Assembly: GCA_042572045.1 (NCBI GenBank)
Contig: JBHPFI010000001.1
Span: forward strand, 47,818 to 111,817
Direction: 5' to 3'
Origin: Candidatus Omnitrophota bacterium
Lineage (GTDB): Bacteria; Omnitrophota; Gorgyraeia; Gorgyraeales; Gorgyraeaceae
DNA: 64,000 nt
Shown here: one piece after another, positions 2,904 to 64,000 of the stretch
Position numbering within the stretch: position 1 is the first letter of the stretch
Layout: every line of letters starts with the position of its first letter
Position numbers and translations under genes: made by a program
Notes under the pieces: generated by a model
What the model was told of the DNA's origin: nothing
The model's input: the letters and a program-made list of their open reading frames with translations, nothing else
Databases searched by the model: none

Positions 2904-2960
2904 GCAGGCAGATAATCCGCCTCTGGCGGATGGATCAATTTCATGTGTCAAGTTAGCGCG
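2904..2960. repeat. left copy of a ~56-bp inverted repeat (pairs with 3867-3922)
   Basis: gcaggcagataatccgcctctggcggatggatcaatttcatgtgtcaagttagcgcg is near-identical (3-4 mismatches) to the reverse complement of 3867-3922. A further half-site, cccgcgctaacttga at 2858-2872, pairs with the end of this copy. Confidence 0.8.
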
Positions 2961-2993
2961 GGTGTTCTGCTAGGGGAGAGGCAGAAACAACCC

Positions 2994-3410
2994 ATGAAAA
3001 AGATTATTTTCCCGATATTCTTGATCCTCGCCTTGTTTTTATTTCTTTTTTTTAAGAGCAAGGCCTTTTTAGTCTATAAGGTGATAGAGGCAAGAAAGGG
3101 CGTTAGGCATACGTCTATAAGGTACGTGTTGGATTGGGATGTTTTTTTAAATTATGTAAGAGATATTCCCAGAGATATCTTTAAAAAACCCATTTTTAAT
3201 AAAACCGATTCCCCTTATAATCTGGGGTTGAGCGGAAAAGAGATAGAGGGCGTAAAGAAGGTTTTAATGGACATGAAGGCCGCCACAGCAGCGTCCGATG
3301 AAACAGATATAGACGTAAATAAATTAAATCTTCAGGAGAAAATCAGGCATTTTCTGGAGAATTATAAGGGGCCATCTGGTCCTCTTAGTGAAAACTATAA
3401 GGAAGAGTAA
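2994..3410 (+). CDS. hypothetical secreted/membrane-anchored protein
   Basis: Probable true start is MKKIIFPIFLILALFLFLFF (hydrophobic signal/anchor) after a GGGGAGAGG RBS. The track ORF at 2943 starts inside the inverted repeat. Confidence 0.4.
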   Translation: MKKIIFPIFLILALFLFLFFKSKAFLVYKVIEARKGVRHTSIRYVLDWDVFLNYVRDIPRDIFKKPIFNKTDSPYNLGLSGKEIEGVKKVLMDMKAATAASDETDIDVNKLNLQEKIRHFLENYKGPSGPLSENYKEE

Positions 3411-3851
3411 ATGAAGCAGAGAAACGAGCTGATTTTATTATTGGCAATGAGCCTATTCTTTTATAGTCCTCTTTCGGCTGAGGCCGGCATAGGACAGAAG
3501 GTAACCGGCACAATGATTAAGGGTGTGGTCAAAATAGCTGTAGCGACAACAAATATTAAAAGGGCGAAGAAAAAGATTGTCAATAAATTGGACGGAATAA
3601 GCGAGGAAGATTTTAGAGAGAGATACTCTGGGTTTTATGAGTTAATAAAGGACTTGCCTCCGGACCTGAAGAGCGCTTATAAAATTACACCGCATATGAG
3701 CAAAGAACAGATGGTCAGGAATGTAGAATCAGTGGATAAGAAAAAGATATACAGAATAATAGGCCGGATTCCGGACAAGACCATTGCAATGCTTTTCAAA
3801 GAATACCTTAGAGGCGCAGGGTTTAAAGAGACAAAGTCTGAGAAGGATTGA
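3411..3851 (+). CDS. hypothetical secreted protein
   Basis: N-terminal signal peptide MKQRNELILLLAMSLFFYSPLSAEA. Start overlaps the stop of the upstream ORF (TAAATG). Confidence 0.4.
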   Translation: MKQRNELILLLAMSLFFYSPLSAEAGIGQKVTGTMIKGVVKIAVATTNIKRAKKKIVNKLDGISEEDFRERYSGFYELIKDLPPDLKSAYKITPHMSKEQMVRNVESVDKKKIYRIIGRIPDKTIAMLFKEYLRGAGFKETKSEKD

Positions 3852-3866
3852 TTTGGCCTTATACCT

Positions 3867-3922
3867 CGCGCTAACTTGACACATGAAATTGATCCATCCG
3901 CCACGGCGGATTATTCGCCTGC
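3867..3922. repeat. right copy of a ~56-bp inverted repeat (pairs with 2904-2960)
   Basis: cgcgctaacttgacacatgaaattgatccatccgccacggcggattattcgcctgc. An additional half-site, tgtcaagttag, at 3943-3953 mirrors the left-side arrangement. Confidence 0.8.
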
Positions 3923-3976
3923 TGCGCATAACTTTAGTCGTTGACTGATTTGTCAAGTTAGGGGATAATAGATGTA

Positions 3977-4486
3977 ATGAAAAGCGCAAAAATAATAATC
4001 ACATTATTAATAGTTGTTGTATTGGCTTCAATTGCCGCTGGTTATGCCGCAGGGTTTTTTGTTTACAGGCAATATAAAGAGAAGGCAGTATATTTTGATA
4101 AACAGGTACAGCTTACCATGGATAAGTTTGGAGGCATAGAAAGTAATCTAGACGAGCTTTATTCTGCCCTGGATAAAGGCAAGATGGAGAGAGAAAATGC
4201 CTTATCTAAGATAGAGAAGATAAAAGAAGATCTTCAGGGATGGAAAAAAGGGTACGGCGCCACTTTATCAGGGCTTAGAAACGCGATAGATGACTTAAAG
4301 GTCGATAGGCTCAGGATGGCAGTCGAGGGGCTAAAGGGAGACATCAATGATTTTAAAATGACTATGCAAGATTTTGATTTGAAACTCGACGAATACAGAG
4401 GAAAGACGGTGAACCTAAGGGCCGACGGAGAGAATGTTAAAAGTGTAGATCTCGGTAAGATTTCTGTGCGCAAAAGGGGAAAGTGA
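3977..4486 (+). CDS. membrane-anchored coiled-coil protein, hypothetical
   Basis: N-terminal TM helix IIITLLIVVVLASIAAGYAAGFFVY followed by a charged helical region. Confidence 0.4.
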   Translation: MKSAKIIITLLIVVVLASIAAGYAAGFFVYRQYKEKAVYFDKQVQLTMDKFGGIESNLDELYSALDKGKMERENALSKIEKIKEDLQGWKKGYGATLSGLRNAIDDLKVDRLRMAVEGLKGDINDFKMTMQDFDLKLDEYRGKTVNLRADGENVKSVDLGKISVRKRGK

Positions 4487-17677: not shown

Positions 17678-17789
17678 GCGCAATAATAAGTTTTCTAACA
17701 TGATCTCTGTGTCCCGCGGCAGAAGATATAGCAGGTTAGAAACGCGGGTTTTTGGCGTAAAAGGCGCCAAAATAGCGCCAGAGGTTTAT

Positions 17790-17818
17790 TTGAAAGATAG
17801 CGTTTTCCATGGTATACT
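17790..17818 (+). promoter_or_regulatory. sigma70-like promoter of giant gene 1 (TTGAAA-17-TATACT)
   Basis: Conserved with the promoters at 38416-38444 and 59344-59372, at the same spacing. Confidence 0.5.
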
Positions 17819-17825
17819 ATATATA

Positions 17826-18050
17826 AGATATATAGCAGCAAGATTCAAGGCATAGCGTATGTACTTTATATGATTAACCAGGCCAGTAATAAGGGCTATT
17901 TTTTTGCCTATATTAAGTTAAACTTTAAAAAACTCTTATATATAGCAGAAAGATAGAAGACATAGCGTATATGCTGTATTGGACTAACTAAGTTGCCGAG
18001 AAAGGCTATTTTTTTGCCTACATTATGATAAACTTTAAAAAACTCTTCAG
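17826..18050 (+). repeat. tandem direct duplication (~112 bp x2) of the giant-gene leader and start region
   Basis: aagggctatttttttgcctatattaagttaaactttaaaaaactctta (17890-17937) repeats ggctatttttttgcctacattatgataaactttaaaaaactcttcag (18003-18050). The ATG is mutated to ATTAAG in the upstream copy. Confidence 0.6.
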
Positions 18051-21000
18051 TATTAAAATTATATCATTAGTTGTAGCTGTAACATTCTTTGTTACATCTA
18101 CATCTTATGGCATAGACATATCTGATAGGATCCACCTACGAACCCCTCTTTTATCTAATTCAAACGAAGGTACAAATAGGTTAAAACAGGCATTATCCTA
18201 TCAGTTAAGGCAGATGCTAGGTCAGGTGGTTAAGTCAGACACTACAGAAGATCTATCATTCTACGGCGAGACAAGGAGGGCTCTTTTATTAGAAGGCGGG
18301 AAGATTCTTTTAAATGAGGAGCTGTATAATAAATATAACTCTGAAAGCATCCTAGAAAGAACAGAGGCCCTTCAGACAATTATACATGAAACAATAGAGG
18401 CTTTGCTCCAGGTAATAAAAGCGGGCCATTCTTCTAGATATCGCTCCATGAAAGAATTAGCCTTAAATCATCTCGTAGAGCTCTATTTTGCCCTTCCCCA
18501 ATCTGATAAAAGTTATAGAGATGAAATTCTTGCCAATGACATCTGGGCTATTGCGTTTGAATACAGGCTAATGGGTGTAATTCTAGAGGATATCCAGGAC
18601 ACTAATCTTAGAGCATTCTTGAAAGAGGCATACGAGATTATTGACGCGCGCGGAAGCCTGTTTGGAGAGGAATTCAGCAATATTTATAGAGTCAAAGAAA
18701 CTGTGATAAATTCCATCAGAAGAGGGATGACTTTTGTCCCTGCGGCAGCTGGAGTAGATGATGTTGACAGGTCGCTTCTGGATGAAGAAATTCATGCAAT
18801 AGTAATAAGAAGAAAATTGAACGCTCGAATTATACAAAGAATGATAAATCGGAAAAAGAGGCATTTATCACCTTACATTGATGAGGTTGACAGGGCAACA
18901 GGTGTCCAGGTTCTTTCCTTAGCCCTTGCAGGAAAAAACCTTGTGGCAAGGCGAACAGCAGAAGATATTGCCCAGAGAGTTGGAGAAAATTTGGGGCATG
19001 CTATTGCTGGTGTAATTTTAGGAGACAGAAAACTGGCAGGAGCAATGAAGGGTATGGAGAGCGCCGCCGAACAAGATATATGGAAAGATGTTCAGCATGT
19101 TGTCTTAGGCGGCGGCGTACTCTCAGGCGAATTTGGGCATGAGGCAACAGCTGTTTCAGAACAGATTCTAAACAAGCACAACCTTGATGTAGAAGTTGAA
19201 CTTTCTGAATGGGGTAGATGGCTTAATCTAGTTGGCCTGGCTCGTTCTGTTGACATATCGAAACTTCGAGAATTATTTCCAGAAGGCGGTAGGGTAAGTT
19301 TTTTGGTTGCAGATTTCGGTAAAACTATGTGGAAACCAGCCGTGGTAGAAGTAGATGTAGATACAGGTAAGGTAGTTATGATAAATGTTCTTGAGAGCGT
19401 TCCTGTTCCTGAGAATGCAGTGCATCCAGTTGCAAGGCGTTGGTGGGTAACTACAAGGCTATTAGATATAATTGTAGCCCGTTTGCCTGTGCGAGCTCGA
19501 GAGTTTTTCTATGATCGTCGTATACAGAGAACTCGGGAATTTACTGAAGACAGGTTGCGGGAATTATATGCGAACCCGCGACTAAACGAATATAATAATT
19601 TTTCTTCTAATATACTTATGCTCACCGTAGGCATTGATGGATTGGACGATGGTCTTTTGCAAGAGGTATTGGGTAAGAAGGATACCACAGAGACAATAAC
19701 AGGAATATTGTGGGATACAAAGGCAAGCGCCCTGGCTCTTACAGGAAGGTACAAGGAGCCCACGGCCGTTATGGTTGTTGGTACGGGTGCTATCTTAACA
19801 TATGTTCCTGAGACAAAAGGAGAAGTCCTTTCTTTGGCAGATAGATTTATTGTTACAGAAGGACGAGGTGGAATAACCGAGATGGCCGCCCTACAAAAGG
19901 AAATCAAGTCTCCAGATGTTGATGCGCAAGGCAGGGATGAAAACGGAAAATTTACAGAAATCCCTGGGAAAAGTCCAGAATATATGAGGGATTTTGTAGC
20001 GACCCATTATGGAAACACCCCTTTTACCATTGCACAATATATTAAAGATTGGGAAATAGCTAACCCCGGAAGAAGATTGCCGCAAAGCACAGCCTATAGT
20101 GACTTAACTAAAGCAAGGGCAAACGGATGGATTGAAAAACGTGAAAAAGCTCATTATAGACTTACCGATAGCGGTTCTTCTTCGGCTTTAGGCTGTTTTG
20201 GAGTTCAGGTTTCACAGGACATATATGTAGTATCTGATGTCATGATAGATACATTTGGTGGGTCTAATTTTCGTGCAATTCATGTTGATAAAAACACCCA
20301 GCCATTATCACTGGCTGACTATGAGCGTTTTCTAGAAAAGTTAGGAACTGTTAGTCCGTCTTTACACAACCAACTTATGGAAGAGCCAGATCAGGGATTT
20401 CAACAGGTTAATTTAGTCTATTTTACCCCCGGACATATTCTTTTAAGAGCTAGTCGGACAAAAAATCCTGAGAGTATTCGTGACGACCTTCGTCATGAAT
20501 ATTTTGAACAAATGTTACGTATGGCCCCCCTAGAGGAGAGAGAAGCTTTCTCATTATTATATGAAAGGCTCTATACGGCCTATCCTGATTTTACGGCAGG
20601 CATCGATGTTCTTTTTGGAGAATTAGAACCTTATGCAGATCAGATTGGCCAAGAAATTTTTTGGGCAGACTTCTGGACTTATGTGGCTTGGCCAGATTTT
20701 TTGGGGCAAGAGTTTTCCGAGGATATTTTAAGGCGGCTTAGTGCGCAAGCACAAACAGATCCTATAATTGCTAGATCTCTTCCCGTAGTTTTAGAATCTC
20801 TTCAAGGACTCAGAGAACAATCGGAGCGGGCCGCTGATTTGACTGTTTCACAGCTTATCGAAACATTTATTGTTGAGGAGCAACGCCAATATGATTTACT
20901 CATTCCAGAAGCGCAGGATTCAAATATAAAGCTGGCGATGTTTGATGTAGGTGGGGTTTTATTTAAAGTAGATTTTCGTAGAAGCGTTGAAAAATTAAAA

Positions 21001-27000: not shown

Positions 27001-28536
27001 GAAGGTCAAAGAACAGGGTTATTGGAAACATCGGATACCCTCATGCAAGAATACGGGTTTAGCGAAGAAGGTCTGGAAGTATTTAAACAAAGATTGGCGG
27101 ATAGTAGACAGAATATGCATCGTCGACGGATAGATGAGATAGCTCTTTCGTTTGAGGAAACAGGAAATTTTGTAGGTAATTACGTAGATGCATATATATA
27201 TTGGGTATATAGACGGATGGGAGCAGAAAGAAATAATTTACTGGAAAGCCAGAGGTGGCTAATTCCCGGCTCTTGGCAGGACTTAGCCGCTTACGATCAA
27301 TATAAAGAATTTACTAAATTTTGTACTATTTATAATTTTTACGGTGCCGTAGATGCTATTTTTGATGACATGGAAAGCTTTTTCCCTGGATTAAAGGTGT
27401 TTACTGTTAGGCCGGATAAGACTAGTGGCCCATCTTTATTAGAAACTTCCACGAACGAACTTGATATTGATACGCAAGGCAGGGATGGACAGGGAAGATT
27501 TGCAGAACTCCCTGGGAAAAGTCCGGAATATATGAGGGATTTTGTAGCGACCCATTATGGAGACAGCCCTTTTACTATTGCTCAATATATTAAAGACTGG
27601 GAGGCAGCTAATCCTGGGAGAAGATTGCCGCGTAGTACAGCATATAGCGATTTAAGGAGAGCAAGGGCAAATGGATGGATAGAGGGATCCAAAGAAGGAG
27701 CTCATTTAGATTTAGACGAGTTAATGAGATATTCTTCGATAGGCGGGAGTGCACTCAACCATGAGCTGGTTTTTCATATCAAAGGCAGTGATAGTAAGGA
27801 TCCGGAAGTGGCTAGAGATGAGAATTTAAGAAATATGCAAGTAATTGCAGTAGAATCAACTCTAGACCCAGAGTTTTTTGGCGAGGATCATACTACGCAC
27901 ACATTGTTATTTATAGATACTGAAAAAGACGAGGTGGTTGGTTACGCTGGAGTTGCAATACAAGGGGAGCGCATTATTGGCGGTTCAGGCAAGGTTTTTG
28001 ACTCATTTAGAAATCATGGTTACATGGGGAGAGCCGTAAAGCTTTTACTTTTAAGCCGTCAAACAAAAGAATGGTTCTCGTCTTACTCATTAGAAAAGCC
28101 GGCAGAAAGAATGTATCAAAGAATTGGAGAAGACTCGCGATTTATCATAACATCTGTCAGGCCTTCAGGATACCTCTTAAGGCTTAAGGCCGAGCAAGTC
28201 GCTATGAGTGAGTTACAGCAAACAGTTGTACTATTCTCAGGAGATGAAGCGCAAGATAACCTTGATGGCTTTAGGCAGGCATTAGATGAGCTAGATGAGA
28301 CCAATACAGCTGTAGTAATAGTAGATTCAGAAGAACAGCAGAGATTTTTCATAGAGCACAGAGGAGAACTAGGAAGATTTTATATTAGAACACCGGGACA
28401 ATTAGGTTTAGCTAGCTTTGATTTAGAACAGGTCATGACTACGATAATGGGTATAGATAATCTTAGATGCGTTCCTCTCACAGATTCCCTCTGCGACACC
28501 TTTGAATCCCTTAAGCAGGCCAGGGGCCAGGTGTAG
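18025..28536 (+). CDS. giant secreted multidomain protein, paralog 1 (3503 aa)
   Basis: Uninterrupted 10.5-kb ORF. N-terminal signal-like MINFKKLFSIKIISLVVAVTFFVTSTSYG. Internal motifs: HAD (MFDVGGVLF...YVLSNNN...FFDDSLVNV ~20930-21600), HExxH (FHEIAHAYF ~22861), GNAT-like (~23290-23530 and ~27895-28130), PrmA-like methyltransferase (LLDAGSGSDA...DIVIANLSY ~24440-24800), second SAM methyltransferase (QEWGAGDG ~26000-26350). The repeated ~70-aa module occurs twice, and the C-terminal domain is conserved. Confidence 0.85.
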   Translation: MINFKKLFSIKIISLVVAVTFFVTSTSYGIDISDRIHLRTPLLSNSNEGTNRLKQALSYQLRQMLGQVVKSDTTEDLSFYGETRRALLLEGGKILLNEELYNKYNSESILERTEALQTIIHETIEALLQVIKAGHSSRYRSMKELALNHLVELYFALPQSDKSYRDEILANDIWAIAFEYRLMGVILEDIQDTNLRAFLKEAYEIIDARGSLFGEEFSNIYRVKETVINSIRRGMTFVPAAAGVDDVDRSLLDEEIHAIVIRRKLNARIIQRMINRKKRHLSPYIDEVDRATGVQVLSLALAGKNLVARRTAEDIAQRVGENLGHAIAGVILGDRKLAGAMKGMESAAEQDIWKDVQHVVLGGGVLSGEFGHEATAVSEQILNKHNLDVEVELSEWGRWLNLVGLARSVDISKLRELFPEGGRVSFLVADFGKTMWKPAVVEVDVDTGKVVMINVLESVPVPENAVHPVARRWWVTTRLLDIIVARLPVRAREFFYDRRIQRTREFTEDRLRELYANPRLNEYNNFSSNILMLTVGIDGLDDGLLQEVLGKKDTTETITGILWDTKASALALTGRYKEPTAVMVVGTGAILTYVPETKGEVLSLADRFIVTEGRGGITEMAALQKEIKSPDVDAQGRDENGKFTEIPGKSPEYMRDFVATHYGNTPFTIAQYIKDWEIANPGRRLPQSTAYSDLTKARANGWIEKREKAHYRLTDSGSSSALGCFGVQVSQDIYVVSDVMIDTFGGSNFRAIHVDKNTQPLSLADYERFLEKLGTVSPSLHNQLMEEPDQGFQQVNLVYFTPGHILLRASRTKNPESIRDDLRHEYFEQMLRMAPLEEREAFSLLYERLYTAYPDFTAGIDVLFGELEPYADQIGQEIFWADFWTYVAWPDFLGQEFSEDILRRLSAQAQTDPIIARSLPVVLESLQGLREQSERAADLTVSQLIETFIVEEQRQYDLLIPEAQDSNIKLAMFDVGGVLFKVDFRRSVEKLKEFCPNLVVEASEQGEIDDYIYSLFSDRQSGYLGYLLESGRMGPEEFFQRVIDVLKREGVEISLRYSEFIEVWNEAYEGPIEENIALFKTFILKGYTVYVLSNNNPLHKELVLSLLEREGISFSRRHFISSHELRMLKGEDTETFEQVLKDKRIGVEVISGSNFRARVSPEEIIFFDDSLVNVRMATSANINALHYTGEKGFAQKVSDVLMQPVEKPRALRGLVDKYVQARKALKAQRERFEDMVVDLPVRERVDLERLRTLGSELGLDELEQEAEALKEELSKYRAPDGHISWWHYGSQEANDWPTSYSRDRELPADEVWDMEREPSTDEVWIGLEQVALGAKVIAVDFGRTLVPTNARIIAVDEFLLNCLSVMELLLVADSELRIYIISGAAVRERIEEVIMFFPSRFHMLSTSTRFRVSETVYDKGQEVQEILHESNLPESSVIAIGDSEENDRPMALSEGYFVQVYPHTRSVSPNALDVLGRILDIKGQIFVQREDIEDQDLGAMGKFFIKDASYDHGRSTLSVRLIDMEKPQRNLESVKINAQRAPPGLINETLQQLMVMSTNPMVGRIIRWYTDEFVRSGDALILEDNKRDLLGLGKRNIIAVSRHLINNPVALFHEIAHAYFDAHPNEIARIERQLAKGRLRWVNSKDQSLRTHYVLRAFQRQIFKEKDRYLTQLINNVKETRESVSRRELFYLGDNLIELKQLIPLAEALESALGQIDDERARAMLSGGFSVDAGGYSIDNPGEHLLDIVIRDETGSKVAAIKVWPLKQADGVSYDKKGVFLEWFGIEPSWMKGRGVSGPTLYQALARFLHELGYEEIYANIKWGSDDFWENMGFEPAEESIYIPGSIPGFYIEKPGVIRGGNCPTIAQLHKGIITDHVAEGKASMLNIRGLTPEQHDMLNQALGTFFVGLNQVRSDIDVLGEEELGRIDPEGVLGEVEDLRAYRFTREQLQQALEDIDALPEDIEYIIANLIAHPGRFRDTKGIPRATNLFILDEHYNILTQLESSLQAQWARHERAHLDDITRSEQDIQIDHPIDSVVGSLRIRIAEARLLSETDKLDEYFLKEVWPDDLTQKIERIINGRPITTIFGKNFLFVGRFLFITQTERGKHKDELQDFKDSVIICNLSYSEHSPFLNFEWGINTLLAVQMLQAYEDEVRGKTLLDAGSGSDAVLGMVAHRLGTKQVFCVEGNGEKARGSRTFLEINGIDQGVVRVVHAEFSELLSSPQLIDKPDIVIANLSYNGFYAEDRSVPRISDLEGLKNWHSQLARRFSPELYFLCGAVEEFPSRKPAGWIEVAKGAMDEAGYKIALEESLYRVREDESTTFVLEPAIGQTQKTPDEILRNIMRSRDENRIIALIDELRKATYDSIEDTDIYLNRAQVHLSKLRIERRRRKRTLLDTRAELDALIREASKRPFGFSVQEVEGGDLFIVVNGQVPLEDEDYKIILYNLVSLKKIVSEWGSDRGEELIDYVRRRTLSGFLEIDDISHEQGFLSLKIGGCVSVTIDIATLEIVSQSGLTFLPKADFYDSGVVREFGDYVAGLMESELGFDGEANMGLDTILSWEYGARAASKKVDSIQGAKSFELDAASADEELPSEGAAEGEDGKTQAEIAKDKLLGEEFAPLDHPHNIANKLNDWYYQAFGGAAFRKTERVGTLEEASAKKSAEEFYDTLKILDSQGSLLEEIVVQEWGAGDGYSAAVFLSRLKELDEENGTSYYQRLRYVLIDKSSTAAEDIKTNPYLLEHARVIDTRVMDVLEGGEKLREILLIRANSLLNSLPKKMFKITNGDIYELYTRPYLDMDEVEVLVDSSGRKYGIEDMRRILSEEDVEAMRRLGREFFRRIKWEERYEPITSTEELPYGEYLESLVRDGFEGSIALDLGALTCLNNMLIQLSSHGSLRICDAGAVEYPEIGEVAGKLFRFYGAIYSPVNFHFLNETAPVSVGAVSQVAYGGEYVQKRIGLVKVLNLILKDFETFKRYFNAETFFTPPSLTVPEGQRTGLLETSDTLMQEYGFSEEGLEVFKQRLADSRQNMHRRRIDEIALSFEETGNFVGNYVDAYIYWVYRRMGAERNNLLESQRWLIPGSWQDLAAYDQYKEFTKFCTIYNFYGAVDAIFDDMESFFPGLKVFTVRPDKTSGPSLLETSTNELDIDTQGRDGQGRFAELPGKSPEYMRDFVATHYGDSPFTIAQYIKDWEAANPGRRLPRSTAYSDLRRARANGWIEGSKEGAHLDLDELMRYSSIGGSALNHELVFHIKGSDSKDPEVARDENLRNMQVIAVESTLDPEFFGEDHTTHTLLFIDTEKDEVVGYAGVAIQGERIIGGSGKVFDSFRNHGYMGRAVKLLLLSRQTKEWFSSYSLEKPAERMYQRIGEDSRFIITSVRPSGYLLRLKAEQVAMSELQQTVVLFSGDEAQDNLDGFRQALDELDETNTAVVIVDSEEQQRFFIEHRGELGRFYIRTPGQLGLASFDLEQVMTTIMGIDNLRCVPLTDSLCDTFESLKQARGQV
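19915..20136 (+). repeat. conserved ~70-aa module, copy 1 (DVDAQGRDENGKFTEIPGKSPEYMRDFVATHYG..PFTIAQYIKDWE.ANPGRRLP.STAYSDL..ARANGWIE)
   Basis: Near-identical to 27463-27684 and 44704-44926 (~90% nt identity). Confidence 0.8.
27463..27684 (+). repeat. conserved ~70-aa module, copy 2 (within giant gene 1)
   Basis: DIDTQGRDGQGRFAELPGKSPEYMRDFVATHYGDSPFTIAQYIKDWEAANPGRRLPRSTAYSDLRRARANGWIE. Confidence 0.8.
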
Positions 28537-32533: not shown

Positions 32534-32542
32534 GAGATAGAT

Positions 32543-32613
32543 TAGATGTATCCCGCTTACAGATTCCCTCTGCGATACTTCCGAATCCCTTAAGCAGGCC
32601 AGGGGCCAGGTAA
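32543..32613 (+). pseudogene. orphan 3'-terminal fragment of the giant-gene family (last ~22 codons plus stop)
   Basis: agatgtatcccgcttacagattccctct matches the gene 2 3' end. gcgatacttccgaatcccttaagcaggccaggggccaggt matches the gene 1 3' end. There is no upstream ORF. The fragment is followed by the same downstream sequence and promoter module as gene 2. Confidence 0.65.
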
Positions 32614-32693
32614 AAATCTTACAGTACAAAATATCCAAAATTATCCCCATAAAACCTGAAATATTATGTTAGTTGGTAATCCCTCCGAGCTTA

Positions 32694-32722
32694 TTGACTA
32701 TTTTAAAGGCTAGTAGTAAAAT
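32694..32722 (+). promoter_or_regulatory. conserved promoter module (TTGACT-17-TAAAAT), copy 1 of 3
   Basis: cttattgactatttt[a/g]aagg... is shared with 48753-48781 and 58850-58878. Confidence 0.45.
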
Positions 32723-32812
32723 AAGGACAATAAGTGAGAACCACGGGGCGGGGTTCGAGATTTAGAAGATAGCTTATGTAAGATGGCTATCTAGATAAAG
32801 GAGGTATCAAAA

Positions 32813-38415: not shown

Positions 38416-38444
38416 TTGAAGGATAACGTTTTCTGTGATATACT
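38416..38444 (+). promoter_or_regulatory. sigma70-like promoter of giant gene 2 (TTGAAG-17-TATACT)
   Basis: Paralogous to 17790-17818 and 59344-59372. Confidence 0.5.
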
Positions 38445-38546
38445 TTATATTAATCAGATATACATAGCAGGGATATTTAGGCCATAGAATATATAGATAT
38501 ATGTATTAACCAAGCCGTTAAGAAAGGCTATTTTTTTGCCTACATT

Positions 38547-41500
38547 ATGATAAACTTTAAAAAACTCTTCAGTATGAGGATTGTATCATTAGTCGTAGCT
38601 GTAACATTCTTTGTTACATCTACGTCTTATGGCATAGATATACCTGATAGATCCCACTTAAGGACCCCTCTTTTAACAAATTCAGACCAAGGGACCAGTA
38701 GGTTAAAGCAAGCCCTATTCTACCAGTTAAGACAGATGCTAGGCCAGGTAGTCAATGCAGACACTTCCAAAGACCTTGCCTTTTACGAAGGAGAAAAACA
38801 AGCCCTTTTGCTAGAAGATGGAAAGATCCTGGTAAATGAAGAGCTATATGATAAGTATAACTCTGAGATCCCGGGAGAAAGAACCGAAGCCCTTCAGGTA
38901 CTCATACATGAGACAGTAGAGGCACTTCTCCAGGTTGTAAAAAGAAACCATTCCTCCAGATATCAGACTATGAAGGAGCTGGCCTTAAGTAACCTCCCAG
39001 CACTCTATTTTCGCATTCCCCACCAAGCTGATAAGACCTACCGCGATGAAATCCTTGCAAATGACATCTGGGCAGTTGCATTTGAATACAGAATGATGGG
39101 CATAACCCCAGAACAGGTCCAAGACCCTGATCTCCAAAACTTCCTAAAAAAATCCTATGAGATTATTGATGCACGCAGAAGCCTATTTGGTGAGGAGTTC
39201 AACAGCCCTTACAGGGCTAAAGAGACTGTAGTAGAGGCCTTAAGAAGAGGGTTTGAGTTTAAGAGGGTAGCGAGAGCAGACGCGCAGGAAGAGATGAAGG
39301 GCGGGAAAGAGGTAGTTTTTTTGCAGGCCAGCGTGGCCGACGATTTAATCTATCCAGAAGGCAAGTCGGGATTAATGAACTCTGTGGAAGAGCTGAAAGG
39401 CAAGCCGATTAGGTTTGATATTATCAACGGAGAGATTTTGTTGCAAGATGAGCAGCCGCTATTTAGATTATTAGGGCTTGAGACTTCTCATTCTCAGCAG
39501 GATTTCTTGGAGTATGGGCTCTGCGCGCTTATCCGGGAGCGGCTCTTAGAGACAGATGTTTCTACATTAGGCGATTTGCGCAATCTTAGTTTTGTTTTTG
39601 GTGACGAAGATAGTGCTTCTGTCTCTGGATTTGATTTCCGTAGCCCATATGCTAAAAGTGGAAGAAACGGAATATTTTTTATAAACGTTAAGGCATTAGC
39701 TGCGCTAGAAAAGCCTCAGGACAGACAGACTGCTTTTATTTTAGGCGTCTCACATATGATATCGCATGAGGCCTTAAAAGGCGCGGATACAGTTGAACCA
39801 ATTTTGCTGGCCCAGGATATAAGATTAGCGACTACTCCCGGCAGAATCAGCATGGACCCTAGCGCTTTTATTGAAAACTTTAGAGCTACTGTAAGGCTTG
39901 ACTCCGGACCTTATGAGGGCATATTAAGATTTCTTGATACCGGCTATTTACGGCGAGAGAATATAGAAATATTAGCATCTAGCGGCATAATGAGAGATTT
40001 ATTTCAAGCCCTACCTGAATTGGATGCATTATACGCGGCGCGTTACAAAGGAAAAAGCTTTCTTTCAAAAGAGGAAAGAACAGCTGTGTTCCAATATGCC
40101 ACTATATTGGTCCATCAGGGAAGGATAAAGGAGGCCAGAGAAGTTATTGAACAACCGCTTGGTCGAACTGCTATACTCGGCAGTAGTTACGACAAAGAAT
40201 TATACAAAGCAGAACTCCAGTATTATTTGAATATGGGAGATATTGTTTCAGCGGTTACGCTTACAGAAAAGTTTTTTGCAGAATTTCCAGATGACTGGAG
40301 GGTAACGAACGGAAGTTTTGTAAAAGAGTTTGTTAGTAGAGGATATTTTCAGCAAGCTCGCGAACTTCTGAAAAAATACTATCAAGGCGATGAAATCCGT
40401 CCCGGCGGAGAGCTGCAACATATCGCGTTTTTGTATAAAGAGCTAGGGGAGTTTAATGATTTAATTAATATATGTAAACTTATACCCCTTCAGTTCAAGC
40501 CAGAAGATAGGCCTCGCGAACAATATGCTATGATAACATCTTGTATTCTTGCAGATATGGCGATACATCTTGTAGAAGAAGGCAGGATGAGCGAAGCAAT
40601 CGCCATTGCTTATGAGCCAGGACTTGAGCCGTATAGATTAGTAGTGTTAGCCAAGCTAGTTACTTTTCTTCTAACTAGTGATCGCGCTGATTATCAGGCT
40701 GAAGCGATGAATATCGTCGATAAACTTAAAGACGACCAAATTGTCAGCGCTTTAGTTAATAAACGAATAAGCATGTGGCCTGACCAGCCGGCATATGATT
40801 ATTACTATTATGCTTATATGGAAGGTGTTTACGCAGAAGCAATGTTTGCTATAGGTGAGTATGAATCATTAGCTCGTAAGGTTATCGTGACTACCAGTAT
40901 GGATTTTAATCTGGATTATATATTAGAACGTATTGGTTATGGCGAAGATTTATCGAGATTTATTCAGACCTGCGTAGTGGTTGCTGCAGAGGTCGAGCCC
41001 CCTCAAAACAATATCTATTATCATAATCGCGGTCAATTGCATTTTAACTGTAGAATCGCTAGGATTATGTTTGACTGGGTGTATGAACATGGCTATAGAA
41101 AAACCGCAGAATTCATAGATTCCTATTTAGATGATATTGAGCCAGATAGAACTCATCCAGAAAGACCTTCTTGGGTAATAGCAAAATTAACAGCCCAAGC
41201 TTGTTTACGTAGGGAAATGGACGATTCCCTTGTTGAAGAATGCCGCGGCTACGAAAACGGAGAAAAAATTCTAACTAGCCTTGCCGAACAACGTAAAAAA
41301 AGAAACGAAGCTTTTCCAGCAGACAAAGAAAAAAAAGGCATAAGGAGGTATTGGGAAGATGAATACACTCGAAAGTTTAAACAAACTACAGGAAGTCTTG
41401 ACATAAGAGCTGCTGGGTATCCATCATTGCAAACTTTATTGGAACGCCCTGTTGACCCTTTCAGTGCTAAGAGTAATAGATTTCCAAATATGACTAAAGA

Positions 41501-44500
41501 GTGCCATGGATATGTTACGCGTAGTTCATGGATACTATCGCGATCAGTTATAGGAGCAGTGCTAGAGCGCAGAGAAGGGTATGACAGATTGGCGGAAGAA
41601 ATCGGACCTTACAGGGTTCAGGCACTTTTAGATAGTGTTATACAAAGAAGAGGCGCTGATGCTTATTTTGTTTTCGAGGGGTTTATTGCACTTTTTCATG
41701 CCGGGATTACTAACGTTGACATGTTAGACAGGATAGACCTTGTTCTTACTCCTCTGGCCAGAAAGGCAGGTGTCGGGATAGCTAAGGCCTACGAGGATTT
41801 TGTAGATTTACTATCAGCAGGCATTCCTATTGAAGAAGGCTTGAAGCTTATAGGGACGGTAGTCGAAAGAGAATCTAGTGAGATTTCGGTCGCATATGAT
41901 AGCTTATATGTACTTATTAGAGAAGATATAGTAAATGTTTTAGTTCAGGCCGGCATTTCGCAGCAAGAAGTAGTAAGCTTTTTACAAAACATTGCTACTG
42001 GAGATAGATGGGATACTTCTTTTATTTTTTGGAGCTTAGTAGCGTTGGCCAGGTCAAATCTTATAAACGGAGATAGCTATCCTACCATTGGCCATCTATA
42101 TAAGGAGCTCTCATCATTCCAGAGGGGTGTTAGGAGATTTAAAAGTCTATTTAATAGAGCTAACGGGGCGGTCACAGAAGAGCATTTTAAACAGTTTGAA
42201 GAACGGGCCAAGGATATATATAATGCGCTTGAAATGCAGAATATAATTAGAAAAGGGCAAGTAGTAAAAGAAGAGATAGAAGAGTTTCTTGGTCTAGACG
42301 TAGACCAGGCTGATAGAAAGTATTTGGCGGGATTAAGCTTAAGGAATACTCAAGAGCTCTCGACAGTGCAGAATATTTTGAGAGAAATTTACGGCCGTGC
42401 CTTTGCCGAACAGCACAGGATAGATGAAGTGCGTTTCTGGCCAATGCACCTTAGAAACATAGCCTTTTTCCAGGTAGCTTGCGGAAGAATAGGTCTGGAT
42501 GTTGCGAATTTTGTCGTCAGTTCCTTAGGACCGAGAAGATTGGACAATTTTCTGACGCAAACAATGGAAATATATACTGACGAATCTTATGTGCGTGGAT
42601 TAATTTCGCTATTAAACGGTTCCCAGGACAGGCATCCCGGGCTTGCTTTGCATATAGTGGAATACGCCGCGGCCTATAGCCAGTTAGAGTTGGGAACAGA
42701 GTTTGGCAAGGTAGTCGCAGGAGTGGTGTCGGATAAATTTGGACTTAGACAGGCAAAAATAGACTTAGGAACCGAATTATTCAGGCTATTTTCCCAACAG
42801 CTTGGCTTGCAAGTGGATAACATATCGGAAGATATGATTAATGCCTGGGAGTTGAGCTATCTTTCTAAATTGTTTGTGGGACGCAAAATGATTCATGCCA
42901 AGGGAACGGCCTACAGGCCCCTTCAGGATTTATTCGATAGCATTATTACATCAACGCTCGAGGGCAGGTTTGAGCAATTTATTATGGACACTAATCCTGA
43001 GACAAACGCTTATCCGATGGGCGTTAGAGTGGCCGAGCACAATGAGCAATTAAGAGCGGCGTTGTCCGAAAAGGGGATAGACGTGGCTTTTTGGCTTAGG
43101 TACAGTGAGACGAGCTCCTTTGGTTTTAGTGCCGAAGAAGACGAAGGCGAGGTCATTGATATAATCGGTGAATTGGGTGCATTGGCCGATGCCCTTTCTT
43201 TTATATTGAATAAACTTCCGGGCGATGAAGCGAGGTATGGAGAAGCCATTCTAGGCAGCCTTAGAAAGATGGAGATTTTTCTTGATACGACGGATCCGGA
43301 GCGCCCCTTTTTCTGTAGGATCATGAAGGACGGCGAGCTGTCTACTGATCCGGAAGATGTCTTGTCCGTCTTGTTTGACGGACAGAGATTGCCGGGCTTG
43401 AGAAAAAATCTTGCGTATGTGCAGGGACGCACCGTAGAGCAGGAAGTCGCGACTGCGATATTTCATTTTGTAGAGGATATAGATAGGGTCGACGGAATTG
43501 TCGCAAAGACGGATTTAAAAGATCTTACAAGTGGCGCGGAGAGGTTTACGGTCAAGGTGTGGGGTCGAAACCCCGCAAGGGATATATTCCAGGGTAATTT
43601 TACCAGTTGTTGCGTTGCGATTGATAACAATCTTCATCCGGAGGCGATCCTGGAATACTTAATTGATCAAGGTATTCAGGTGGTAGAGGTGATTAATGAA
43701 GCCACAGGCGAAACGATCGCCCAGACATGGTGTTTTATCGCGATGGATGGTGATGGCGAGGCTGTCTTGGTTATGGACAACATAGAGGTGGTAGGTAAAT
43801 ACGCAGCAGCAGGAACTGATGAGAATAATATAATCAGGGATAATATACTAAGCTATCTGCAAAGATATACGAGGGCAATAGGCGCTAAAGGTCTTTATTT
43901 GGGAAACACCCCATATCAAGACGTGGATGTATCGACGTTTGAGAGAGTTCCGGTAAGCCTGACAAAGTTAGGAGGCAATCTATGGGCTTATGAAGGAGAG
44001 GGTCAGGGGTATCGTTATTATCTGGAGGCGCTTTACAGCGAAGACCGCAGCAGGAGAAAGACTGAGGCCCACAGGATGTCGTTACCCGAGGTGTCCGTTG
44101 ATGAGACTGCAACCGATGCAGGCTTTAGCATAGAAGTCATTACTCCTGATACAATCGATTGGAAATTGATAGGCGAGTTGGCAGCAGTAGAAGTCGATGC
44201 CTATGCTGGGCCTATGGTACTGGGCGTAGAATCCATTAGAAGCGTAGTGGAAAACCCTAAAGCCGTATGCCTTGTTATAAGAGATGACTCCAGCGGGAGA
44301 ATCGCGGGATATCGATTTGCCATACCTTCGCAGGAATATCCGCAGAGTCCGATTGTAGGGGCTGACATACTTTATGGATACGATATCGCAATCCATCCCA
44401 AATATCAAAGGAGAGGGCTTTTTAGCAGGCTGCACGCGGAATTTATCGAGGAGGCACGCGCAAGAGGTTATACAGCGATGTCTGCGCATGTCAGAATAGC

Positions 44501-47500
44501 GGGCAATGTCCCTGAGCCCCTGCGTTGGCCAAGGATATGGATAGAAAGGCTAGAGGGACGACCCGTTAAAGGCGGACAGATTGTCTTTCCTGATAACGGA
44601 AAGCGTTATTCCGACTCGATCCTTTTGGATTGCGCGATCCCGTGGCTCGATGGTGAATCGGCAATCCCATGCGTCCTGGATCTGGCTGAAACAGAGTCTC
44701 CAGACGTTGATTTGCAAGGTAGAGATGAGAGCGGAAAATTTGCAGAGCTCCCCATGAAAAGCCCGGGATATATGAGGGATTTTGTAGCGACCCATTATGG
44801 AGACAGCCCTTTTACCATAGCTCAATATATTAAAGATTGGGAGACGGCTAACCCCGGAAGAAGATTGCCGAGCAGCACAGCCTATAGTGACTTAACTAAA
44901 GCAAGGGCAAACGGATGGATTGAGAAATTAGAGGGACCTCATTATAGACTTGCCGAGATAGGACAGGTTCAGAATGTCGGCCATGTCGAAGCATGGGAAG
45001 AAGATGTAAGTGTCGCTAAAGAGCAAGTTGTAAAAGTCCTTGTTCTCGATGATGACTATCATATGCTCAATGCAACCAAGGAAAGACTTGCCGCCTCAGA
45101 GATTGTAAGTATAGAAACAGCAGCAGAAATGGATGAAGGACTCAAAATATTAGAGGCCAATCCAGATATTAACTTTTTAGTGCTTGATTTTAGACTCTTT
45201 GAGTATCCCACTGAAAATGGAGTTCAGTTTTGCAAGAAGGCGTTTAAGGCCCCTTATAATTTTGAAGGAAGAGTTGTGATTTATTCAGCCGATGATACCG
45301 CTATTATAAGTGAGCTTAAGCGCTATCCCGACCTGTGGGACAGGTATATACAAGGACAGATTTCTATTCAATTAAAACATGACACAAGGGCATTCGAAGA
45401 CATAAGGGCCAGGATTATATCATTCGCAAGGGGTGAAGAGGCGCTGCCTCAGGAAAGCGCTACGGATATCGTAGCATTAGAAGAAGAGCTTCCGCTTGCA
45501 GCATTAACGATAACACCAGATGATATCGGCATTACTCCTGCCATTGTAGATCGATTTAGGGATTGCCATGTAATCATAGCAGATGATAAGCCTTTTATAA
45601 GAAATGCTATCGAGGCAACGGTTAGCAGATTTTTTGATAACGTACATAAATTAGGTACGGTCGAAGATGCTGTAGAATTGGTGAAGGCATTGCGCAGACA
45701 AGGCGTGCCTGAGGAAAGGATAATAATCCTTTCTGATTATGAGTTCGGGACCGAACAGACAGGTATAAGACGGCTGGATGGTCGCGATTTTGTGAACATG
45801 TTGAGGTTAGCCCCGAACGCTGACTATCCCGAGGAGACCCTTGGCTTTATGGGATTCTTCTTCTTTGTTTCAGGAAGTATTATTTCTAAAGACCAGATAT
45901 CCGGCTTTAACAAGTCCGCAAAGGATATTGACTTTGAAGTCAAGGTAAAATATGGGATTGATTATATTGAGAAAAATGCCGATGAAGAGTTTCCGATTGC
46001 ACTGCTAAAAATGGTCTATGTCAGACTTCAAAAGCCGTATAATTTAAGCGCAGATATTACTGATGCCCTTCCACGTAAGCCTATGTCTAAGCCGGCTGAT
46101 ATCAGTTTCTTGAACGGAGGCGTTAATGATTTTGAAACAAGGCTTAAAATGGGCCTTAGGGTTTTAAAAGATTCACTAACAGAACTTGCGCCCAGAGTGG
46201 AAGACAGAGAGGCCTTAAGAAGGATAGAAGAGGTTCTTTCTAAAATGAGTGCATTTTTTGAGCTTGGAAATGTTGACAGGAGCCTTGCCTTTAATGTGCG
46301 TACCCATAATTACAAAGGGCATATTTTTTACGCAGCAGGTTATTTAACTCCCCAGATACGCGAAGAAGTAGAGTCCTTGAGTGCTTCTGATAGAGAAAAA
46401 TACGGACCATTCCTTGAGCAATTGGATAATCTAAGCTTAACGATGAATGTCGCCGCAAACTATATGCTTAGATTATTAAGATTATCCGCAGCAGTCGGGA
46501 ATATTAATATGCCTATTACTTTTGAGGAATTTATACATAATACCGTAGAGATTTTTCTTACCGATTATGGAAAGCGAGTAAGTATTGAAACGGATTTTGA
46601 TAGAGACAGCCTTGAAGGCCTGGAATTTCCCTATGGCCTCGCCTTTATTGTAGCATTCATATTGGATAATGCCCTTGAACAGTATCAGGTAAAGTTTGGC
46701 AAGGATTTTAAAGGCAAGATATTTTTTAAGGTCAATAAGGAAGAAAAGACACTTGAAATAGAAATAATTGACGAGGCGGGTGGCATACCAGAGAAGGTAT
46801 TGCCTAATATATTTCTGAGAAAGTTTACTACAAAGGTACATGGCGCCGGGTTTGGATTATTTTGGGCTAAGCAGCTGATGGGCATGTATGATGGTGAGAT
46901 TGCAGTGCGCAACGAAGGCGATGGCGCCTGTTTTACCTTGACTCTTCCGCTTGATTGGAAACGCATTGCAGAAGAAAAAGAATACGCCCCCGAAGAACTT
47001 ATGCAGCGAGTCCTTGATGTGCTCGCCGAACGCGGCAATCCTGATGCGGAGGAACTTGCAGAGAAGATCGCGAGAGAGATTTATACATACAGCACCAAAA
47101 TTGCTGAGGTTACTAAGACAAGAGAGACAATCTCACACGAATCTTATTTATATCAAGGTCACAAGCACATTAGATACAAAATAGAAGAGATGCTCAACAC
47201 TTATTTCCTGGCTATATGTACTGGCGACTACCAGGTTTTTAGAGATATTATTTTTGAAAAAGGCACGACGCAAAAGGACATAGAAGACCTTTTATTATCG
47301 CTACTTGCGCTTAAACAGGTTGAGGAGAAAGAGGACATAACATTCGCACATTTACCAGTAAGACAGGCGGTTGTGCTCTTATATGATTCTGAAGGCAGAG
47401 CACGGATCTTGCTTCGTTCAAAAGAGAATCTTGCGAGAGAAGAGGAGGGCATTACGCCAGAAAAAAGGAATAGGTATCAAAGAGTATTACGGCAGACTGG

Positions 47501-49779: not shown

Positions 49780-50631
49780 ATGAATAGAAATAAGCTTCTT
49801 TTACTGATTTTAATATTGGCGATTACTTGCATAGCCTACGGAGAAGATTACAAGACAACATCTTTCATGAGAGACCTTGAAAACAGAAAAGGTTCCTATG
49901 TTTACAAGAAAACCTCACAGCCACGTTCGAATTTTTCTTCTTTTGTAAAACGATTCTCTCGCGACGAAAAGGTATTCTATAAATATACCGAGCACGGGCA
50001 AGGCGACTATGATAGATATTTAAATGTAACGTGGGAGATCGATGCAGAAATGGAAGAAAAAGAAGACCTTCTTTTTCTCATTTATTCCAATAGGATCATT
50101 AGGGATAAAGTTGGGGAAATCATTGTTAAATATGAAAAGCATTTTGATTATGATGAGCGAAAGATAGATTGCATTTCATCCGATGACAAAGGGGAGATCA
50201 TTAAAAAGAAGACCTTTCCTATCAAGGGCTACACTACCGACAACATTACGTTGTCGTATTGTCTTAAAACATTCGTAGCCCACCATGACGATAAAACATA
50301 TAGAAGTTTTTATCTCATTTCGAGCGAACCAAGGCTCTATAGGATAACTACCAAAGTGATCGCTCATGAGGTCTTAGAACTGCCTGCAGGTAAAATAAAC
50401 GCTATCAAATTGAGACTTATCCCTAATTTCGGGGTATTGACAGGCTTAACAGGCGCCTTAATTCCTCCGACGTATGTTTGGTATACTGAAAAGCCTCCTT
50501 ATACCTGGTTGCAGTATGAAGGCCTGGAGGCAGGTTTAGGAACATCCCATATTGTAGTTTATATCTCTGATTTTGTAGAGCATATAACAAGAAACATATT
50601 GTCCCCGCCTTCTAAAAAGAGTATCATATAA
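49780..50631 (+). CDS. hypothetical secreted protein
   Basis: Signal peptide LLLLILILAITCIAYG. Confidence 0.4.
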   Translation: MNRNKLLLLILILAITCIAYGEDYKTTSFMRDLENRKGSYVYKKTSQPRSNFSSFVKRFSRDEKVFYKYTEHGQGDYDRYLNVTWEIDAEMEEKEDLLFLIYSNRIIRDKVGEIIVKYEKHFDYDERKIDCISSDDKGEIIKKKTFPIKGYTTDNITLSYCLKTFVAHHDDKTYRSFYLISSEPRLYRITTKVIAHEVLELPAGKINAIKLRLIPNFGVLTGLTGALIPPTYVWYTEKPPYTWLQYEGLEAGLGTSHIVVYISDFVEHITRNILSPPSKKSII

Positions 50632-50633
50632 AC

Positions 50634-55466: not shown

Positions 55467-55514
55467 TCTAAACAAGTCCTTGCCTCTGGTGTCTAAAAAT
55501 AGTATCATGTAAAT

Positions 55515-59322: not shown

Positions 59323-59343
59323 AAAAGCGCGCCAGAACATTAT

Positions 59344-59372: not shown

Positions 59373-59463
59373 ATAACATAGATAGCAGGAATATCTAGGG
59401 CACATTGTATATTACATAGCGATTAACTAAGCCGTTAAGAAGGGCTATTTTTTTACCTACATT

Positions 59464-63368: not shown

Positions 63369-64000
63369 ATGATAAAGTTTAGAAAAGACTATAATTTGAA
63401 GATAATATCGCTAATCGTAAGCATTGTATTTTTCTGCAGTTCCACCCTATATTCCTATCCAAATTCTAAAGATACATTAAGACCACCGCTTTCAACTGCA
63501 GATAGCTCTGTATCTCGTGGAGCAGATGGAGGGTTTATAACAAGAGCACAGCATGTATTAATGCGGCTTTGGCTTGAACACAACGATGCACGGAGAGAGG
63601 AAAATAGAGAAAGAGATTTAGAGAGTCAATGCGCTAAAGAGGGAAGGTTATTGCCGAGAGATATCTTTGGCGTAGATGCTACAGAAGAACCTGTAAAACG
63701 ACAATATATCAAAGATGAACTCGTGCTTAATGGCTTTAAGCCTGAGATATATATTGTTCAAGGCTTAGCAGAAGGAACAGGTGTTAGGGGGCACTGGGCA
63801 TTAAGGGATGGCGTAATATATGTGGATAAAGGTTGGTTTGATTCTGAGGGTGAAAGTTCAATATGGCATGAATTAGATGAACTCATAAGTATAAGAATAG
63901 CTGCTATTAATGAAGGAATGAGCTTTGAAGAAATGGTTAGATGGTTAGACGAAGAAGGTGATTCTACAGAAGTTAAAAGATTATTAGAAGGAGCCCATAA
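63369..64000 (+). CDS. giant-family paralog 4, 5' part (continues beyond the window)
   Basis: ATG at 63369, open to the window end. N-terminus MIKFRKDYNLKIISLIVSIVFFCSSTLYSYPNSKDTLRPP parallels paralog 3 (MINFKKLFTLKIISVIVSIAFLCNASLYAHPESKNTLRIS). It is only 56 nt downstream of gene 3 and has no promoter of its own. Confidence 0.6.
   Translation, partial: MIKFRKDYNLKIISLIVSIVFFCSSTLYSYPNSKDTLRPPLSTADSSVSRGADGGFITRAQHVLMRLWLEHNDARREENRERDLESQCAKEGRLLPRDIFGVDATEEPVKRQYIKDELVLNGFKPEIYIVQGLAEGTGVRGHWALRDGVIYVDKGWFDSEGESSIWHELDELISIRIAAINEGMSFEEMVRWLDEEGDSTEVKRLLEGAH

Follow-up and report, generated by a model that had tools for sequence, protein, structure and literature searches.

A predicted PadR-like winged-helix module repeated in large, leader-bearing multi-enzyme proteins of Omnitrophota

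Few bacterial gene products are as poorly understood as the large and giant proteins of Omnitrophota, for which published work lists enzyme domains rather than binding targets or block organisation. West-Roberts et al. 2023 described the 'Archaeovorins', giant multi-enzyme proteins for which processing by a C39 or S8 peptidase was proposed (bioRxiv 10.1101/2023.11.21.568195), and 'Module 1 / Module 2' long proteins are also known from Omnitrophota (bioRxiv 10.64898/2026.06.07.730766). Here we analysed a 64,000-nucleotide (nt) stretch of contig JBHPFI010000001.1 of a Candidatus Omnitrophota bacterium (positions 47,818 to 111,817; the whole stretch is called the window and its numbering is used throughout). 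We describe a small domain, hereafter the module, that occurs in two long genes of the window, as copies A and B in gene 1 and copy C in gene 2 (Table 1). The window is ordinary bacterial chromosome with 41% GC, taken from a 176-kb contig of a metagenome-assembled genome (MAG).

The published long proteins and those described here come from the same phylum and have much in common. In both sets methyltransferase, HATPase_c, GNAT, HAD, receiver, PPDK, GT5 glycogen synthase, GT1 and radical SAM domains are found, and the genes form tandem arrays. The signal-peptide-like leader seen here, recognised by eye, may correspond to the N-terminal signal peptide or transmembrane segment of the published proteins. 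Neither of the two reports mentions a winged-helix, helix-turn-helix (HTH) or DNA-binding module, a shared leader or a shared C-terminal domain. The sizes differ: the published giants have 10-147 thousand amino acids (kaa), whereas the window proteins have 1.3-3.5 kaa (3,503 and 3,375 amino acids (aa) for genes 1 and 2), below the giant size of at least 10,000-30,000 aa.

A second comparison is offered by polymorphic toxins, in which pre-toxin domains are, as Zhang, Aravind et al. reportedly found in 2012, conserved domains flanking swappable C-terminal cassettes. The module resembles them in being a sharp-edged conserved unit that separates unrelated sequence, in that a block of module, GNAT and C-terminus starts near the 5′ edge of the module in two unrelated genes, and in the presence nearby of an orphan relic of a 3′ end (32542-32724). 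Whereas the C-terminus varies in such toxins, in the module proteins its extreme end is conserved more than any other part, and the module is also found near the N-terminus; no toxin domain or immunity gene was detected in the window proteins with Pfam and PADLOC. From self-cleaving junction domains (HINT, the cysteine-protease domain, GPS/SEA) the module differs by having no conserved catalytic Cys or His. Its context is unusual in that it is internal, sometimes repeated and preceded by an arm, in leader-bearing multi-enzyme proteins of 0.4-3.5 kaa.

The module, its predicted fold and its relatives

Comparison of the window with itself by blastn gave 86.0% identity over 221 nt for A and B (19915-20135 / 27463-27683, E 4e-69), 86.6% over 262 nt for A and C (19907-20168 / 44695-44956, E 6e-86) and 82.2% over 259 nt for B and C (27467-27723 / 44707-44960, E 9e-65). 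Over a 222-nt core the three copies share 83.3-87.8% of nucleotides, somewhat less than the ~90% given in the initial annotation, which had placed the module twice in gene 1 and once in gene 2 between unrelated flanks, as we also find. At both edges the identity of the DNA alignment collapses. Blastp of the two proteins revealed just three common blocks: the N-terminal ~238 aa (72%), the module, and the C-terminal ~140 aa (68%). The repeat is thus real, far above chance and sharply bounded. Its conserved unit measures ~97 aa by the envelope of the hidden Markov model (HMM), with a conserved arm of ~20 aa and a folded core of ~70 aa, the latter being the size first proposed for the whole. The first coordinates of A (19915-20136) and B (27463-27684) translate cleanly, whereas those of C (44704-44926) were 1 nt out and run into stops; the in-frame range is 44703-44924. 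A tblastn search of the window disclosed no decayed extra copies, its match at 43806-44015 having an E of only 0.86. A nucleotide-level function of the conserved DNA was considered and ruled out: RNA structure does not explain the conservation (fold z-score +0.4), and no promoter-like site was found within or around copy A.

Structure prediction with AlphaFold2 on the 14-member alignment A3, whose residue numbers are used below, gave a mean predicted local distance difference test score (pLDDT) of 82.7, with 88-96 in the 10-residue blocks from residue 31 on; with the three window copies alone the prediction was uninformative (pLDDT 56). The predicted elements are helix 28-38, a bridge at 44, helix 46-56, helix 64-76, strands 80-82 and 88-90, and a short helix 92-98, and the model is that of a classical winged helix-turn-helix core, H1-b1-H2-H3-b2-b3. 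Foldseek results were dominated by PadR-family chains (LmrR, PadR, Rv3488, AspA and Pex). When the family alignment A3 was compared by hhalign with a PadR consensus, itself matching PadR chains of the PDB at E 4e-16, the probability was 93.3% (E 2.7e-07, 57 columns), and STAY was paired with GTLY and YRLT.xG with YYRLTEKG. A profile search of PDB sequences reached AspA at E 0.37, with YYKLTDKG aligned to YYRLTEKG, and the Pfam PadR model (PF03551) gave below-threshold matches in 6 of the 14 members (E 0.001 to 1, best 0.00099). Judged by modelled fold and profile, the module is a new relative of the PadR-like branch in the winged-helix superfamily, and the early guess of a winged-helix-like unit is borne out by these predictions.

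The comparison with known PadR domains (PF03551; B. subtilis PadR 5X11, LmrR 3F8B and the archaeal centromere-binding AspA 5K5Q), to which the module is similar at the 93% hhalign probability, shows both likenesses and differences. Common to the two are the [ST]-x-Y opening of helix 3, G-[WL]-I after it, the Y-[RK]-L-T-x-x-G wing and a tyrosine equivalent to Tyr42 of PadR. PadR is a stand-alone regulator of ~100-180 aa, whereas the module is an internal domain of leader-bearing proteins of 385-3,503 aa; it has a conserved N-terminal arm that PadR lacks, and neither a long dimerisation helix nor a C-terminal domain is predicted for it. The equivalent of PadR Tyr20 is variable and that of Lys67 is missing in copies B and C. 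The arm spans ~25 residues, is predicted at low confidence (pLDDT 42-74 over residues 1-30) and follows the motif R-[DN]-x-x-G-[KR]-[FY]-x-E-x-x-G-K-S-P-E-x-M, in which K26 and M31 never vary and R14 and G18 are kept by at least 90% of members. Invariant columns of the 14-member alignment are K26, M31, F44, Y49, W53, D70 and A74. No column of this alignment conserves Cys, Ser or His, hence the module is not itself an autoprotease. In copy B the wing has diverged, with ..GAHLDLD in place of ..HYRLT.

An exhaustive HMMER search with the three-copy profile against 1.84 billion representative proteins matched 14 proteins, namely gene 1, 11 genuine relatives and two repeat-rich false positives (P0008 and P0012), which we rejected. 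The module is therefore not without detectable homologues, as the initial annotation had allowed, and the relatives revealed its neighbouring domains as well. A word-indexed protein search with the module or the 14-sequence alignment gave no match, even though the collection includes gene 1, so every homologue stems from the exhaustive search. A profile scan of metagenome contigs yielded three loci with alignment A4 and none with alignment A2; no relatives were found in viral contigs, and the NCBIfam and PADLOC models gave no meaningful match. One match in a representative-genome contig, a Flavobacteriales phosphatase-like open reading frame (ORF) sharing QYIKDWE, was dismissed as chance. The family is rare (11 representative clusters in 1.84 billion) and restricted to Omnitrophota as far as its members are named, both named homologues among the 11 being from this phylum. 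The NCBI name of one member, P0005, is 'winged helix-turn-helix domain-containing protein'. The domain lies outside Pfam and NCBIfam, and a model built from it would improve the annotation of Omnitrophota.

The homologues are 385-3,392 aa long, gene 1 with 3,503 aa being the longest module protein of the search, and the module lies anywhere from aa 33 to aa 2100. Most members are single-copy. A metagenomic protein of 2,058 aa (locus L008) carries the leader, three to four divergent module copies and the C-terminal domain, and P0009 has a degenerate second copy in tandem; repetition within a protein is thus recurrent in the family. Most module proteins carry the common leader, which is found, as in window genes 1-4, in P0003, P0004, P0005, P0007 and P0009 and in the neighbours at loci L002 and L005, and a C-terminal domain of one kind recurs in several of these proteins, related C-termini being seen in P0004, P0009, P0010 and the L002, L005 and L008 proteins. 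Other domains of the homologues are 2H-phosphodiesterase, a poly(A)-polymerase head domain (PolyA_pol), PPDK (P0007), methyltransferases, MutS_V (twice) and TPR repeats, and an AAA_11/AAA_12 superfamily 1 (SF1) helicase occurs in an additional module locus from the metagenome scan. In the window the enzyme blocks adjoining the module include kinase-like, HAD, methyltransferase, GNAT and two-component ones.

Proposed role of the module

PadR-type domains act as dimers, and PadR and AspA contact nucleic acid through helix 3 and the wing. The module is a portable domain of ~90 residues, made of a short arm and a three-helix, two-strand winged-helix core predicted to be of the PadR type. Large multi-enzyme proteins carry it one to four times, with no fixed position; most of them share the leader and many the C-terminal domain. 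In the role that we propose, it would act as a binding handle whose helix 3 and wing contact nucleic acid as those of PadR and AspA do, so that the enzyme blocks next to it would be anchored to DNA or RNA belonging to a host or prey cell or lying in the extracellular matrix. PadR-like pairing may join two copies, either A and B or one from each of genes 1 and 2. We favour this nucleic-acid-binding or tethering handle tentatively, giving it about an even chance or slightly less. As a small, confidently folded domain of a well-understood DNA-binding type, the module opens bench-scale questions on DNA or RNA binding, dimerisation and arm cleavage.

The nucleic-acid role is suggested by the fact that all close structural relatives bind DNA. 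It is suggested also by the part that is kept of the B. subtilis PadR DNA-binding triad, Tyr20, Tyr42 and Lys67 (PMC5728393), the equivalents of which were mapped through the hhalign alignment and alignment A3. The Tyr42 equivalent (Y68) is a tyrosine in 12 of the 14 members. Copy A has a lysine at the Lys67 position, and most homologues have a basic residue there or 1-2 residues away. The 2H-phosphoesterase, nucleotidyltransferase, SF1 helicase and MutS ATPase domains of module proteins point in the same direction. Several observations weigh against this role. In copies B and C a Gly stands in place of Lys67, and the Tyr20 equivalent falls at a variable alignment position; the core has a modest net charge that differs between members (-3 to +7), and D70 in the recognition helix is invariant. 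After the wing only the short helix 92-98 is predicted, with no long C-terminal dimerisation helix of the PadR type, and no member reaches the PF03551 gathering threshold of 27 bits (best 14.4 bits for copy A and 16.9 bits for P0005). A DNA-binding domain behind a signal-peptide-like leader is, moreover, unexpected and would need delivery into another cell or extracellular DNA. Across the family the exposed face of helix 3 is conserved, which fits a ligand common to all members, be it the DNA backbone or one protein partner, better than a variety of operators.

Since only part of the triad is kept, a rather unlikely, yet serious, alternative is that the module serves only in protein docking or dimerisation, linking enzyme blocks within or between giant proteins or docking onto a secretion or surface partner. 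Winged helices of this kind are known from cullin WH-B and ESCRT-II, both examples of protein-protein docking. The exposed helix 3 positions T66, Y68, D70, K73 and R75 are conserved family-wide, unlike those of operator-specific regulators, with D70 invariant; the core is near neutral in several members, the Tyr20 equivalent is lost and that of Lys67 replaced by Gly in B and C, and the leader, too, would suit a docking domain. Against pure docking, the closest structural and profile matches are all DNA-binding domains of PadR, MarR and AspA, and the Tyr42-equivalent tyrosine and the YRLT wing signature are kept. We regard as very unlikely that the module is a processing junction, at which a dedicated protease would cut the R-D / G-[KR]-F arm of a polyprotein to set its enzyme blocks free. 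Despite its conservation (R14 and G18 at 90% or more, K26 invariant) the arm is poorly predicted (pLDDT 42-74), so it may be flexible; di- or polybasic runs (KRRRRG, GRRRD, ERKRD) stand just upstream in several homologues, the module lies between different enzyme blocks, and the C39 or S8 peptidase proposal of West-Roberts et al. for Omnitrophota giant proteins (10.1101/2023.11.21.568195) would provide for such cleavage. However, the module has no conserved Cys, Ser or His for self-cleavage, in several proteins it stands at aa 33-170, right behind the leader and with no enzyme block before it that could be freed, and most members have a single copy.

The nucleic-acid handle can be drawn further. 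The module, the leader and the C-terminal domain may together make up a modular system, not described before, by which Omnitrophota export multi-enzyme effectors. The winged helix and arm would then be both a nucleic-acid targeting handle (in host or prey) and a recombination junction for the exchange of enzyme cassettes among genes and genomes; we consider this wider scheme a doubtful one. If true, it would be a functional analogue of the pre-toxin domains of polymorphic toxins, built on a DNA-binding fold.

History of the copies

Synonymous (dS) and nonsynonymous (dN) divergence, calculated by the Nei-Gojobori method, was 0.36 and 0.08 for the modules of A and C, 0.47-0.52 and ~0.09 for A and B, and 0.77-0.79 and 0.08-0.09 for B and C. 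A dN of ~0.08-0.10 against a dS of 0.36-0.79 (dN/dS ~0.1-0.25) is indicative of purifying selection and of a divergence that is not recent. Between genes 1 and 2 the N-terminal block has a dS of ~1.1 and a dN of 0.18, and the core of the C-terminal block a local dS of 0.1-0.4 and a local dN of 0.07-0.17.

The contig of homologue P0002 (L006), which comes from the metagenome of another sample, provided an outside reference. Its nt 3183-4233 align with window 27479-28505 (1,051 nt, 87.5%), so that module B, the GNAT-like domain and the C-terminal domain form one block, which shows that the module has moved as part of discrete blocks. The shared block begins 16 nt into the core (27479 vs. 27463), within the conserved arm. 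Upstream of the module, L006 encodes HEAT-like repeats of unrelated sequence and then, cut short, the beginning of the C-terminal domain; this truncated start, directly 5′ of the module, marks an old recombination junction. Copy B and the L006 copy differ by a dS of 0.36 and their common GNAT and C-terminal flank by 0.34, a match which argues that B evolved together with its flank. Informative sites gave 10 for the topology ((A,C),(B,L006)) against 1 and 1 for the alternatives, from which it follows that the two gene 1 copies were not homogenised. The window copies are best read as old paralogues spread by domain or block shuffling under purifying selection, not as products of recent homogenisation. 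Such block transfer is a concrete case of mosaic-gene assembly by cassette shuffling.

These data do not agree with the earlier proposal of recent intragenomic recombination or gene conversion. Recent or ongoing conversion that homogenises copies within the genome could account for the lower dS of the module (0.36-0.79) and the C-terminal block (0.1-0.4) compared with the N-terminal block (~1.1), and also for a 36-nt stretch that is identical in A, B and C and differs at 5 positions in L006. The lineage-specific differences are, in addition, clustered, as in a mosaic structure; together with the 36-nt identity this hints at some mosaicism, for which the sites are too few for a test. Yet B is nearer to L006 (dS 0.36) than to A (0.52) or C (0.79), its divergence from L006 equals that of the flank (0.34), the informative sites stand 10 to 1 to 1 for ((A,C),(B,L006)), and a dS of at least 0.36 is not recent. 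Gene conversion is therefore quite unlikely as the main cause of the similarity. A collapse or chimeric join at repeats during assembly, a question also raised at the outset, would be conceivable in a MAG contig whose copies share exact runs of 36-50 nt, and is extremely unlikely. The copies differ at 12-17% of bases, which, with exact common runs no longer than 36-50 nt, shows that they are not a collapsed repeat, and each is in frame within a long ORF. When B and C are followed from end to end, neither turns out to mix the A/C and B/L006 types, and the independent assembly of L006 repeats the junction of module B, GNAT and C-terminus; both make a chimeric assembly unlikely. Eleven other proteins from other samples carry the module as well.

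Near these genes, at 32542-32724, lies an orphan relic of the 3′ end of the family, comprising the last ~24 codons (..RCIPLTDSLCDTSESLKQARGQV, without stop) with 87% identity to gene 1, together with ~110 nt similar to the spacer that follows gene 2. A lost or rearranged paralogue is its probable source.

Host genes and other features of the window

Gene 1 encodes, in order, a signal-peptide-like leader, the shared N-terminal domain, module A, HAD (aa 968-1180), an HExxH motif (aa 1613), Methyltransf_28 (aa 2667-2794), module B, a weak GNAT match and the shared C-terminal domain. The product of gene 2 has the same leader and N-terminal domain, then TPR-like repeats, GNAT (aa 1903-1987), module C, a receiver domain (aa 2164-2250), HATPase_c (aa 2698-2802) and the same C-terminal domain, so that GNAT and receiver flank copy C. 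Pfam matched HAD and Methyltransf_28 in gene 1 and GNAT, receiver and HATPase_c in gene 2; searches with the segments flanking the module added only the weak GNAT match and the receiver domain. The C-terminal domain of ~110 aa had no Pfam match.

Table 1. Positions of the module copies, their host genes and related genes in the window.
Feature	Position	Strand	Basis and remarks
Gene 1 (MFC1666310.1), 3,503 aa	18025..28536	+	ORF; 'hypothetical protein', Candidatus Omnitrophota bacterium
Shared N-terminal block, gene 1 aa 1-237	18025..18735	+	Gene 2 counterpart 38547-39260; 72% protein identity, dS ~1.1
Module copy A, gene 1 aa 631-718	19915..20178	+	Translation; HMM envelope 19897-20187
Copy A conserved arm (R-D-x-x-G-K-F-x-E-x-P-G)	19915-19968	+	
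Copy A predicted winged-helix core	19969-20178	+	AlphaFold2 secondary structure mapped via alignment A3 (first row from 19894)
Copy A predicted helix H1	19975-20007	+	AlphaFold2 via alignment A3
Copy A predicted helix H2	20029-20061	+	AlphaFold2 via alignment A3
Copy A predicted recognition helix H3	20083-20121	+	AlphaFold2 via alignment A3
Copy A predicted wing strands	20131-20163	+	AlphaFold2 via alignment A3
Module copy B, gene 1 aa 3147-3235	27463..27729	+	HMM envelope 27445-27738
Shared C-terminal block of gene 1, QTVVLFSGDE...NTAVVIVDSEEQ...KQARGQV(stop)	28205..28536	+	Gene 2 counterpart 48343-48674; 85% nucleotide identity, local dS 0.1-0.4
Gene 2 (MFC1666327.1), 3,375 aa	38547..48674	+	ORF
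Module copy C, gene 2 aa 2053-2140	44703..44966	+	HMM envelope 44685-44975
Gene 3 (MFC1666337.1), 1,282 aa	59464..63312	+	Same leader; glycogen-synthase GT5 and GT1 (Pfam); no module
Gene 4, leader MIKFRKDYNLKIISLIVSIVFFCSSTLYS..TLRPPL	63369..64000, runs past window end	+	Starts 57 nt after gene 3

The N-terminal block opens with the leader MINFKKLFS[IM][KR]I[IV]SLVVAVTFFVTSTSYG / ID..HLRTPL. All four genes of Table 1 share a leader of the form M-I-[NK]-F-[KR]-K...K-I-I-S...F...S-[ST]-x-Y, then ..[HT]-L-R-x-P-L; since gene 3 has it with no module, the leader family is wider than the module family. Read by eye, the leader MINFKKLFSIKIISLVVAVTFFVTSTSYG has a basic n-region, a hydrophobic core of ~12 residues and small residues at -3 and -1, and it is the sole strongly hydrophobic segment of either giant protein (genes 1 and 2). 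From this signal-peptide-like leader we infer that the proteins are exported. Tandem arrays of leader genes were also seen at L002 (>1,040, 3,063 and 3,969 aa) and L005 (2,916 and 3,212 aa). The shared N-terminal domain holds a conserved H-E-[TI]-[IV]-E-A-L-L-Q-V motif. Zincin-like HExxH / HExxE motifs recur in gene 1 (aa 824, 1613 and 2014, with HEIAH at aa 1613), and HELLH and HEAEH are found in P0007 and P0010, respectively; these regions are possible metalloprotease-like modules that might process the giant proteins.

Genes 1, 2 and 3 share an upstream region (17769-18024, 38416-38546 and 59323-59463) with a promoter-like TTGAAAG-N17-TATACT, then a leader of ~100 nt ending in ...AAGCC.TTAAGAAGGGCTATTTTTTTGCCTACATT-ATG, and with a small hairpin and T7 run directly before the start codon. 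Against an expectation of 0.05, the pattern GGCTATTTTTTTRYC was counted 4 times. The region was absent from the related loci fetched, and may be a shared cis-regulatory or attenuator element. At gene 1 the end of this upstream leader is duplicated in tandem (~110 nt, 17828-18047), with a decayed ORF start (ATTAAGTTAAACTTTAAAAAACTCTT vs. ATTATGATAAACTTTAAAAAACTCTT).

Elsewhere in the window, a c-di-GMP-I-GGC riboswitch aptamer (RF03167, 60.3 bits vs. a gathering threshold of 59) was identified at 53254-53336 on the minus strand, upstream of the sole long minus-strand ORF (52288-53175). A 70-nt repeat with 91% identity (50611-50680 and 55492-55561) gives two unrelated ORFs (starts 50634 and 55515) the common N-terminus MSRYYNPKRKKNLYTP. 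Finally, a 96-nt inverted repeat with 85% identity (2866-2960 and 3867-3961) lies around the ORF region 2943-3410.

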